Below, piece by piece: positions 8,370 through 54,370 of a stretch of 64,000 nucleotides of DNA. The translations under genes and the position numbers were made by a program. Under the pieces are notes generated by a model. It was not told the origin of the DNA. It worked only from the letters and a program-made list of their open reading frames with translations, and did not search any database. The stretch is from Eledone cirrhosa (lineage: Eukaryota), in the NCBI GenBank assembly GCA_964016885.1, contig OZ024749.1, positions 23,002,001 to 23,066,000 of the forward strand. The letters are read 5' to 3'. Positions within the stretch are counted from its first letter, which is position 1; every line of letters starts with the position of its first letter.

Positions 8370-10300
8370 TATATATATATATATATATATATATATATGG
8401 ATAGTAAATGAGTGAAGAGTACCGTGGATAGGCTGTACAATAGGGTATATTCAAAGTTTTAACAATTGTTTCATTAGTCCGGTTGTCTAAAAGTCGCTGT
8501 TCGCAAGATGCTACTTGGATTACTTTAAACGATATCTAGTTAACTTATATATATATATATATATATATATATATATATATATATATATGGATGTATGTAT
8601 ATATATTTGTATATATATATATGATATAATACAAACACACAATATACATACGTATAGATAACATATATATATATATATACAGCAAATCGAATTAAATGCT
8701 AGTAAGTGATTGAACATTGTTCATGTGACTTTAGGACGTATTGTTTGATATATGCAAACCGTTAAGCTGCATGAAGACCTGTCTTTTCGTTTACAAGTTC
8801 TTATCAATGGCTTCTATTGGTATATATTTATATATTTCTTATCTGTCGATATAAATAATAGGTAATTATAGAGTGTTTACTTTATAGAAATAAATCTTAG
8901 GCGATTTATCATCCCTCGATCATACATGAGGCGAGGATGGATGTGAATATATTCATTTGTTTGAATATATATATATATATATATATATATATATATATAT
9001 ATATATATATATATATATACATACATATGTACACATACACCGATATATGTATATATATATATATTATTTAAAAACAAAATATATATAACAATTAAGTCAA
9101 AATATATATATATACACGCATATATATATAAAGGCATATATATGTACACATACAAACTTATAAATCTATCTATCTATCTATACACACACATACATATATA
9201 TATATTTATATATGTGTTTGTGTGTGTGTGTGTGTGAGAGAGAGAGAGAGAGAGAGTGAGAGTATGTGTGTGTGTGTATAATATGTGTATAGAAATATAT
9301 ATATATAAAATATATATATATATATATTTATGGATGTATATATATACATATTTACACGTATATATACATTTTTGTGTGTGTATATATATATATATATATA
9401 TATATATTATTCTAGTAAAGGTTTATTAATGTGTTATATAGTCACTAAGATGGTGTACTTAGAATACATTACATGAAAAACAGTTAAATACAAATATTAA
9501 ACATTCATCGCCAAATGATTTATTGTATGTGTCGTCCTGTCATGCCGTATTTGCCAACGCCTTATGCATAGATATATATATATATATATATATATATATA
9601 TATATATATATATATATATATATATATATATATATATATATATATATAAATATACATACATATCTACATCTATATATATATATATATCTGCATATATATA
9701 TATATATATATATATATATATATATATATATATATATATATATATATATATATATATATATTATTTGTAAATCTATATGTACACAAGATAATTCTTTATC
9801 TACATAAATACCTATAGAAACAAAAACATTCACACACAAATACATACATATAATTATTTAAGCATTTGTCTTATCAATTTAAACGTCCGTATCGAGCTAG
9901 TGAGCCATGACAGTTGAGAAACAAAAAAATATACATATAGAGAGGTAAGTAAACGTAAAAATAAAAATAAGAATTCAAAATAAAAAGGAATAAAATTTAA
10001 ATAAAAAGATTAAACAGAGAAGGCCAACGTGTGACAAACCATGCATATCATAGTTAAAGCATATATATATATATTTCGTTTCTGAATTTGTTTAGCAAGA
10101 TTCTTTATCTGAAATCGTGTGTTGAAACCGATATTGTTATACATTGGGAGGGCCATGTTGCCAATAAGAAACACACGCACCAGTTGCTTTCACTTCAATT
10201 TATTATATATTTATAAATTTATAAATTTACAAATCTACAAACTTATAAATTTCTGGTTGGTTGGTTGGTTCCACAACCAGATAGTTGTTTATATATATAT

Positions 10301-10345
10301 AGTCATAGTCCTTTCGTCACACACTCTGTGACCTCTTCAGTGACT
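10301..10345 (-). ncRNA. Minimal hammerhead in PLE 3' UTR
   Basis: AGTCA-CTGAAGA-G-GTCACA(gagtg)TGTGAC-GAAA-GGAC-TA-TGACT. Confidence 0.7.
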
Positions 10346-10622
10346 GGGGATTCCTTTCTTCGTTTCTGTGCCTTTTCTTTCTTCTATCCTACGCCATTTT
10401 GTTTCTGTGTGTGTGTTGTGTGCTCAGTTTGCGCATGTGCCACATCCGGGTGTCTGTGTGTGTTTGTGTTCATTTTTCTATTTGTTTATTTATTTATTGT
10501 TGGTTGGTTGTTTGTTCTATGTGTGTGTGTGTTTACATTTTGTCCTGTGTGTGTTTTCATTTTGTGTGTGTTTTCAATTGTAAGTTGTTTGTTCTATGTG
10601 TGTGTGTGTTTTCATTTTGTCC

Positions 10623-52933: not shown

Positions 52934-53118
52934 TTTTTTCTATTTTTTGCACAAGGCCAGCAATTATCTCAGTGCATTACTGGTACTTTGTTTTATCGAC
53001 CCCGTAGGGATGAAAGGCAAAGTTAACCTCGGCAGGATTTGAACTCATACCGTAAAGGGACGTAACTCTATGCTGCAAAGCATGCCGTCCGGACCTCTAC
53101 CGATACTCCAATCCACCG
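52934..53118 (-). mobile_element. tRNA-derived SINE with 18-bp TSD
   Basis: TSD CTATTTGCATATAATAAT at 52916-52933/53119-53136. Confidence 0.88.
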
Positions 53119-53779
53119 CTATTTGCATATAATAATGAGAGAGCGGGAGAGTGACAGAGACGGAGACAGTGAGTTAAATTGAAAGAATATCAACATGAAG
53201 TCAACAGCCTCAGGAAAAGACATTCTTGTGAATTATAATTAATTTAAAAAAGAAGGCGATTTGAAATATCATTCTTATACAATAAGATGAGTTAATATAA
53301 CAATTATACTAAAAACAATGGTGGAAAAGTTGAAATTTGCTTAGGGTTTCGGTTATAGTGTTTAGGTTCTGGGCGATTATTTTGTAGGAAAATTATTTTA
53401 AATAGATATTAAGAGGTAAACAATAATATGTCAATGGGAAGGTCAAATGCCATTAGAGGTCAATTTTAATAATATTTACGTCACAACGTGAAAGGTCATA
53501 CCGTGGGCTGCTCTGATGAGGGGTGATAGATATAAATCTACAAATAAAATATTAGTAAATTACTGATCCCATTATTTATCTATCTAACTATCTATCTGTC
53601 CGCCTATCTATCTATCTATCTATCTATCTAACTATCTATCTATCTATCTATCTATCTATCTATCTATCTATCTATCTATCTATCAACCAATCTATCTATC
53701 TATCTATTTATCTATTTATCCATATATATATATATATATATATATATATATATATATATATATATATATATATAAATAT

Positions 53780-54370
53780 ATATTGTTATACTTTGGGAGG
53801 GTCATGTTGCCAATAAGAAACACACACACCAGCTGCTTTCACTTCAATTTATTATAATAAATTTATAAATTTAGGAATTTATACATTTCTGGTTGGTTCG
53901 TTGGTTCCACAACCAGATAGTTGTTTATATATTGTCAAAGTTCTTTCGTCACACATTATGTGACCTCTTCAGTGACTGGGGATTTTTTTCTTTGTTTTTG
54001 TGCCTCTCCTTTGTTCTGTCCTACACCATTCTGTCCTACGCCATTTTGTTTCTGAGAAACAAAATGGCGTAGGACAGAACAAAGGAGAGGCACAAAAACA
54101 AAGAAAAGAATCCCCAGTCACTGAAGAGGTCACAGAATGTGTGACGAAATAACTTTGACAATATATAAACAACTATCTGGTTGTGGAACCAACCAACCAA
54201 CCAGAAATTTATAAATTCCTAAATTTATAAATTTATTATAATAAATTGAAGTGAAAGTAGCTGGTGCGTGTGTTTCTTATTGGCAACATAACCCTCCCAA
54301 AGTATAACAATATCGGTTTCAACACACGTTTTCAGATAAAGAATCTTGCTAAACAAATTCAGAAACGAAA
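53780..54370. mobile_element. Third, non-coding foldback copy of the main PLE family
   Basis: Arms 53780-54053/54055-54313 (1-nt loop); 57-nt tail 54314-54370; hammerheads 53934-53976 (-) and 54117-54159 (+). Confidence 0.92.

Follow-up and report, generated by a model that had tools for sequence, protein, structure and literature searches.

Head-to-head Penelope-like insertions in Eledone cirrhosa end at two fixed internal sites and favour two primings on one sense RNA

We found that insertions of a Penelope-like element (PLE) in the genome of Eledone cirrhosa consist of two head-to-head arms whose outer ends fall at two fixed sites, with, by a near-strict rule, one end of each type per insertion, and that both arms of edited pairs can carry the same A-to-G changes. 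These patterns probably mean that, when this endonuclease (EN)-bearing element inserts head-to-head into (TA)n, both target 3' ends prime on the same sense RNA, one at position +26 and the other at +86 of the open reading frame (ORF).

The 64-kb stretch of DNA that was analysed (the window) contains three head-to-head copies of the main PLE, all lying in (TA)n tracts that flank them on both sides and would mask the limits of any target-site duplication. In copy 1, the tailed arm (10074..12969, minus strand) is a 5'-truncated PLE comprising a reverse transcriptase (RT), a C-terminal GIY-YIG-type EN, a 3' region, the pLTR and the tail, and it stops at site 2; the tail-less arm (12970..13788, plus strand, 819 bp) stops at site 1. 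In copy 2, the tail-less arm (34063..35003, minus strand, 941 bp) stops at site 1 and the tailed arm (35004..36283, plus strand) at a minor site, +71. In copy 3, the tail-less arm (53780..54054, minus strand, ~275 bp, with a short local duplication close to the junction) stops at site 1 and the tailed arm (54055..54370, plus strand) at site 2. The tail-less ends at 13788, 34063 and 53780 thus all read ...CCCAAAGTATAACAATAT, and the tailed ends at 10074 and 54370 read ...CAGAAACGAAA. With the TAT that is common to the (TA)n target included, the tailed ends lie at 10071 and 54373, which places the sites 60 nt apart in register, while the copy 2 end at 36283 (...AAACAAAT) lies 45 nt beyond the first site. 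The 60-nt tail (10071..10130, minus strand) corresponds to nt +27..+86 of the ORF of the next unit and is flanked by two AATAT|CG sites. Inner junctions are unlike between the copies (12969/70, 35003/04 and about 54054), and the arms of each copy are 99.4%, 95.9% and 96.4% identical for copies 1, 2 and 3, respectively. The coordinates in the original prediction were correct for all three copies.

The tailed arm of copy 1 holds an N-terminally truncated open frame (10623..12969, minus strand) with RT motifs (YVDD), a C-x4-C-x2-C linker and then VYSIR...YIGET in one single frame, indicating that the EN is C-terminal. The match of this frame to RVT_1 (Pfam) has E=2e-4 and falls under its cut-off, and residues 690-768 weakly match the intron endonuclease of PDB 1mk0 (E=0.14). 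The linker reads CIDKKCITC, and a C-TEGQ-C plus two downstream His lie inside the EN in an arrangement that, by eye, is CCHH-like. By motif, the main element is assigned to the C-terminal EN+ PLEs, of the Neptune/Nematis type, since those clades have a CX2-5CxxC linker before the EN and a CCHH within it (PMC8557442) and both features are present here. It differs from Naiad/Chlamys, in which the EN is N-terminal, and from the Hydra clade, which has no CCHH and a CxCX5C linker. Canonical features of EN+ PLEs were also present: a partial tandem forming a pLTR with the ORF start, in one read-through copy (L099) and many of 40 read-through regions, and an inverted 5'-truncated copy with a tail at one end. 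The start codon lies inside the pLTR (10154..10156, minus strand), and the protein start can be read in L099. Between the N-terminal region and the RT, L099 has an asparagine/threonine-rich low-complexity stretch (minus strand, ~4300-5000), which can be likened to the N-rich inserts described in PMC3846280.

The element also contains a hammerhead-like motif recognised by eye (10301..10345, minus strand), with CUGAAGA, stem II, GAAA and a minimal stem III; Rfam gave no hammerhead match at E<=1, its output being microsatellite and hairpin noise only. We considered hammerhead cleavage as the setter of arm 5' ends and rejected it, as only ~3 ends lie at the predicted cut, with no clear peak. Arm 5' ends form a modest cluster at -245..-218, at or just upstream of AA(A/G)ATGGCG; this is the AAAATGGCG motif at 10392..10400 (minus strand), at or just upstream of which short-arm 5' ends cluster. 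On the basis of this clustering, a transcription start near the motif, which may resemble a YY1 site, is possible.

To survey ends across the genome, we used a 24-nt anchor with 28,363 exact matches in E. cirrhosa, and exact patterns recovered 13,398 tail-less and 12,972 tailed ends genome-wide. In 60 regions over the first listed anchor matches on C1, picked by position only, we scored 99 ends, with 45 at ORF +26, 45 at +85..87 and 9 elsewhere. This two-site pattern is far beyond chance, and its two sharp outer peaks are those anticipated by the original prediction of two defined sites. Both sites read AATAT|CG, site 1 at +26 and site 2 at +86, inside the 5' part of the next ORF, and the tail of L099 continues in frame into the ORF. 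Read-through past site 2 was found in 470 exact matches, including one tandem run of 12. Since the two sites are located within the 5' part of the ORF of a read-through unit, neither is an RNA terminus, and the proposed combination of one terminal and one internal site has to be replaced by two internal ones. The possibility of an intron past site 2 (GTAAG comes next, and site 2 would be an exon end) was discarded, as the L099 reading frame continues past this point without a stop. At C1:132947043-132947570, at least 12 tandem units of 46 bp contain site 2 together with its read-through.

The ends in use (+19, +26, +71 and +86) all finish in AT or TA, and within the first 305 nt of the ORF, ATAT occurs only at the two sites. 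However, a longer ATATATA run at -122 serves as the end in at most 16 copies and is read through in 4,930. As this run is almost unused, pairing to the target can at best permit the use of a site and is not the selector, contrary to the suggestion that AU-rich pairing with the TA target picks the site.

All 31 position-picked head-to-head pairs, counted after L136 had been dropped as not a real pair, combined one tailed with one tail-less end. Among full-length inserts from the 40 read-through regions with both ends visible, 19 of 21 have one of each, and L335 and L336 look tail-less at both ends; a further exception, the L009/L246 pair, is tailed at both ends. The 66/66 count for the set of 66 junctions still includes L136, loci selected for their tails and the duplicate L042/L043, and omits the tail/tail pair L009.

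Tail status is independent of arm length. In the 31 pairs, with arm lengths taken from the pair alignment and corrected by hand for six pairs, the longer arm is the tailed one in 13 and the tail-less one in 12, and the arms are equal (within 10 nt) in 6. The permutation mean for equal-length pairs is 0.73, and three of the six observed meet in an internal AT palindrome. Full-length inserts divide similarly, with the tail on the inverted arm in 10 and on the main arm in 9; L332, for example, has a 1.7-kb tailed inverted arm and a tail-less main arm. The tail-less arm is also the longer one in near-identical pairs (the first pair of L096, 99.4%; L104 and L122, 98.9%), and later deletion at hairpin centres could have switched which arm is longer. 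The claim that the short arm always has the fixed end therefore holds for the copies in the window and breaks down genome-wide, where the longer arm is tail-less about as often as it is tailed, and the short arm cannot be equated with a fixed internal site. This symmetry (13:12 and 10:9) is not expected under a fold-back of fixed polarity and so supports two primings.

Changes shared between the arms bear on the template. With the alignments of L020 and L105 left out, rare alleles were common to both arms in 72 of 14,817 columns within pairs, compared to 4 of 83,807 in random pairs; the value without L099 was 31 of 13,962. The inverted arm of L099 and the upstream direct pLTR of this locus have the same 31 A-to-G changes. 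The other edited pairs were found by two search patterns that require two A-to-G changes, which gave 7 and 22 matches. Of 11 hyper-mutated pairs recovered, 9 have a locus-specific sense-strand A-to-G pattern in common to both arms, at 288 of 301 changed sites; in another pair the changes of the two arms do not overlap, and in the last the tailed arm has A-to-G and the tail-less arm T-to-C changes. Overlap of edit patterns across loci had a mean Jaccard index of 0.22 (247 comparisons), the sole high value being a host inverted duplication. At L240/L241 (C2:324.75-324.76 Mb), two edited tail-less arms bound an inverted duplication of ~4.5 kb of host DNA that is 97% identical. In L153 and L170, the edits are common to both arms and the tail-less arm is clearly longer, so that, barring later deletion, neither arm can have been copied from the other by simple fold-back.

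Control patterns requiring T-to-C changes gave 0 and 6 matches, none of them a pair with a shared T-to-C cluster and one of the six an opposite-strand hairpin. Among 290 arms not selected for editing, none was T-to-C rich and two were A-to-G rich, both from L099. Two opposite-strand pairs of the same polarity, L243 (C15:40.036 Mb) and L344 (C19:14.489 Mb), have a T-to-C tail-less arm and an A-to-G tailed arm; these are old hairpins re-copied whole, a route that also keeps one end of each type.

The A-to-G load reaches 132 per arm, with few other changes, and in L154/L155 and L177/L178, 90-132 A-to-G changes across 660-900 bp are fixed in the genome. Measured against the neighbour preference of ADAR, the changed sites favour a 3' G and have 5' U/A above C/G, a weak bias, and depletion of a 5' G is also weak (0.16 vs 0.26-0.28 for A/T). 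Judging from the DNA, the clusters are likely ADAR A-to-I edits of the template RNA. Because the same likely RNA-editing marks occur in both arms, both arms were likely copied from one RNA molecule, and the shared edits appear to speak for two primings on one sense RNA rather than for an antisense template or a fold-back. The source of the inverted tailed arm in L099 is the upstream unit and not the unit with the other end (66 vs 5 sites), indicating that the two sites need not be neighbours; a fold-back also fits this locus. L099 alone gave a clear answer on the source unit of the inverted arm: 15 full-length loci are near star-like and uninformative on this point, L312 leans towards the upstream unit (13 vs 5), and L328 towards the downstream one (22 vs 13).

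The insertions appear to be independent of one another. Inserted bases are present at 30 of 66 junctions, and 13 of the other 36 overlap by at least 3 nt, compared to 4.7% in random joins, although these 13 include 3 palindromic centres and a duplicated locus that is counted twice, and BLAST end extension may inflate the number. Such scattered junctions with microhomology were what the original prediction expected. No allele specific to tailed or tail-less arms was found in 718 columns (lowest p 0.12; L099, L136 and L043 left out), which rules out duplication of a single ancestral fold-back with shared arm-specific mutations as the origin of the copies. This single-origin scenario, raised in advance as a way in which the prediction could fail, was rejected as the source of all copies.

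We propose that the endonuclease would cut both strands of (TA)n and that the two target 3' ends would then act as primers on the same sense RNA, with cDNA synthesis starting at +26 from one and at +86 from the other. A two-subunit RNP, as we infer, would set the primers 60 nt apart, with protein or an RNA fold positioning them, and 4-5 bases of ATAT would pair with the target without choosing the site. The two cDNAs would copy overlapping RNA via displacement or template re-use, end either at variable points or where the template runs out at its 5' end, and then be joined 3' end to 3' end through microhomology or short fill-ins. The dimer, the order of priming, the displacement, the ADAR origin of the edits and the transcription start are all parts that we infer. 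As a lead only, a predicted stem may pair -27..-14, ahead of the ATG, with +33..+47 in the tail, and its AC-rich loop would lie next to site 1. The programmed double (twin) priming put forward originally is in keeping with the 31 of 31 one-of-each pairs, the two sharp peaks and the independence of insertions. With confidence only a little above even, we extend this to a general 'double-copy twin priming', of which the PLE tail and inverted arm would be the trace and in which a dimeric telomerase-related RT would start on both strands of a single cut and use two fixed ORF-start sites to copy the same RNA twice, the edits serving as single-molecule barcodes that would exclude antisense self-priming.

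The arms could also derive from one primed cDNA that folds back and is copied into a hairpin, one arm of which is trimmed at a fixed site by the EN or by annealing to the other target end. We consider this unlikely, although it likewise predicts identical edits in both arms, fits L099 and the pairs with a longer tailed arm or equal arms (13 + 6 of 31), and is compatible with both sites sharing a DNA motif that an EN could read; PMC8557442 regards resolution by the EN as the most likely origin of the tail. However, a fold-back of fixed polarity should make one arm type always the longer, in conflict with the 13:12 and 10:9 observed, and a tail-less first strand has no template for the tail of its partner (L153, L170, L332 and others). 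Moreover, two RT start sites have been directly observed in vitro (PMC11167929). If the two ends instead primed on separate RNAs that came from one source locus and were held together by a dimer, asymmetric subunits would account for the one-of-each ends, and the concordance of subfamily (696/750) and the independence of arm length would follow as well. We regard this as improbable, since the edit patterns are locus-specific and yet common to both arms, a variant of the first A-to-G pattern at C1:42.796 Mb matches only its own two arms, and an edited master locus ought to leave many daughters.

A slightly more doubtful account is that most copies are old hairpins that were transcribed through and re-copied whole, or that self-primed on an antisense transcript, as PMC3846280 argues from palindromic junctions. 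Two edited pairs do carry the signature of a whole hairpin, but in nine others the two arms have sense-strand changes in common, the positions of the junctions are scattered, no allele is arm-specific, the T-to-C controls (0 and 6 matches) produced no shared cluster, and 0 of 290 arms were T-to-C rich; as the main route it is already largely refuted. Least credible of all is that ends are set only by AT microhomology with (TA)n or that the copies duplicate one ancestral fold-back. The AT or TA at every used end and the restriction of ATAT to the two sites are what microhomology would give, but the run at -122 is passed over (<=16 vs 4,930), and random use of sites should make half of the pairs same-type, compared to 0 of 31 observed. 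An ancestral fold-back is at odds with junctions that differ and with no allele separating tailed from tail-less arms. Neither is a sufficient cause, and both are refuted as such.

Two other families in the window have comparable inserts. Family A forms head-to-head inserts at 7767..8369, where the right arm carries the tail (~97 nt long in this family), and at 15197..15470, with the same outer ends and a different junction. Family E does so at 15027..15171, with a ~80 nt tail on the left arm, and at 33799..33962, in a (TA)n tract in common with copy 2. Inserts of each family share outer ends, as had been claimed from positions 7767 and 15197 for A and 15027 and 33799 for E, the E coordinates being tailed ends. 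Family A also follows the two-site rule, with both sites reading GATAT and with read-through copies. For family E, in which the query selected tailed arms, 26 of 27 pairs have a plain short partner, 1 has a short partner with another flank, and 0 are tail/tail.

The window is rich in other repeats. Its 7.7-16 kb portion is a nest of head-to-head inserts, and inserts of other families in (TA)n at 13851-14251, 14396-14898 and 15549-15930 have one-sided extensions of ~32, 73 and 45 nt by eye. More inverted pairs of other families lie at 1535-1803, 2134-3045, 3932-5362 and 16131-16571. Elsewhere, family A occurs as ~500-580 bp direct tandems plus an inverted arm in L186, L191, L193, L195, L199, L202, L207 and L209. 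A sister family of the main PLE, ~80% alike in the tail region and with its own ends (window 5436-5513, minus strand; L042, L240, L254, L312, L322 and L327), keeps the GTGTGTT ... ACACAC pairing around the ATG. A dispersed ~190 bp repeat, SINE-like by size, has more than 15 copies (6199-6730, 20700-20981, 39728-39925, 41406-41612, 45776-45967, 49629-49811, 52926-53120 and others), and partial ORFs of other non-LTR retrotransposons, with Cys/His motifs near their C-termini, lie at 40437-41180 (minus strand), 41736-42505 and 51170-52087 (minus strand).

In L1 twin priming, the first primer is at the poly(A) end and the second at a variable internal site, and the copied pieces do not overlap. The route proposed here would be alike in that both cut ends prime one RNA and the cDNAs are joined, producing an inversion (bioRxiv 10.1101/2024.12.14.628481). 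It would differ from the L1 form in using two fixed sites, both of them internal, and in copying one stretch of RNA twice, which yields an inverted duplication. For PAc (Poseidon, Anolis carolinensis), two internal RT start sites bound the tail, both target strands are extended in vitro and a dimeric form has been predicted (Frangieh et al. 2024; PMC11167929). PAc and the E. cirrhosa PLE both have RT start sites or ends inside the ORF 5' end that bound the tail, an AT-rich target, a hammerhead upstream (in E. cirrhosa a candidate recognised by eye), and a stem that is predicted to enclose an AC-rich loop. Tail length is 60 nt here and 30-40 nt in PAc, and the sites here match the target over 4-5 nt whereas those of PAc are called non-homologous (PMC11167929); inverted arms, one site per arm and use of one RNA are absent from the main text of that paper.

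A typical EN+ PLE insertion comprises an inverted 5'-truncated pLTR and a one-sided tail (Pen2a_Av, PMC3846280; PMC8557442 Fig. 2). As described in the same sources, and as here, the pLTR holds the first codons, the tail extends them at one end only, partial tandems occur, and (TA)n targeting accompanies a CX2-5CxxC linker; the tails of the three E. cirrhosa families (60, ~80 and ~97 nt) are longer than typical. The architecture is thus known, being the published one-sided PLE tail, and the family is new and very abundant. Published hypotheses for the tail and inverted arm are antisense self-priming (PMC3846280) and EN resolution (PMC8557442). Shared sense-strand edits and arm symmetry argue for two primings on the sense RNA and against both of these, although EN resolution as the origin of the tail may still be compatible with DNA alone. 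In the literature searched, with older subscription papers and supplements outside it, we found no statement for PLEs of one site per arm or of edits shared between arms; the passages of PMC13282606 covered give PLE counts only.

The formation of inverted, one-tailed PLE insertions has been stated to be an open question (PMC8557442, PMC11167929). The main value of our analysis is genomic evidence pointing to two primings on one sense RNA: more than 13,000 natural products follow the near-strict rule of one start site per arm, and three published hypotheses are reduced to one experiment with a barcoded template in the existing in vitro system. The shared A-to-G changes further suggest that RNA edits can become heritable DNA via PLEs.
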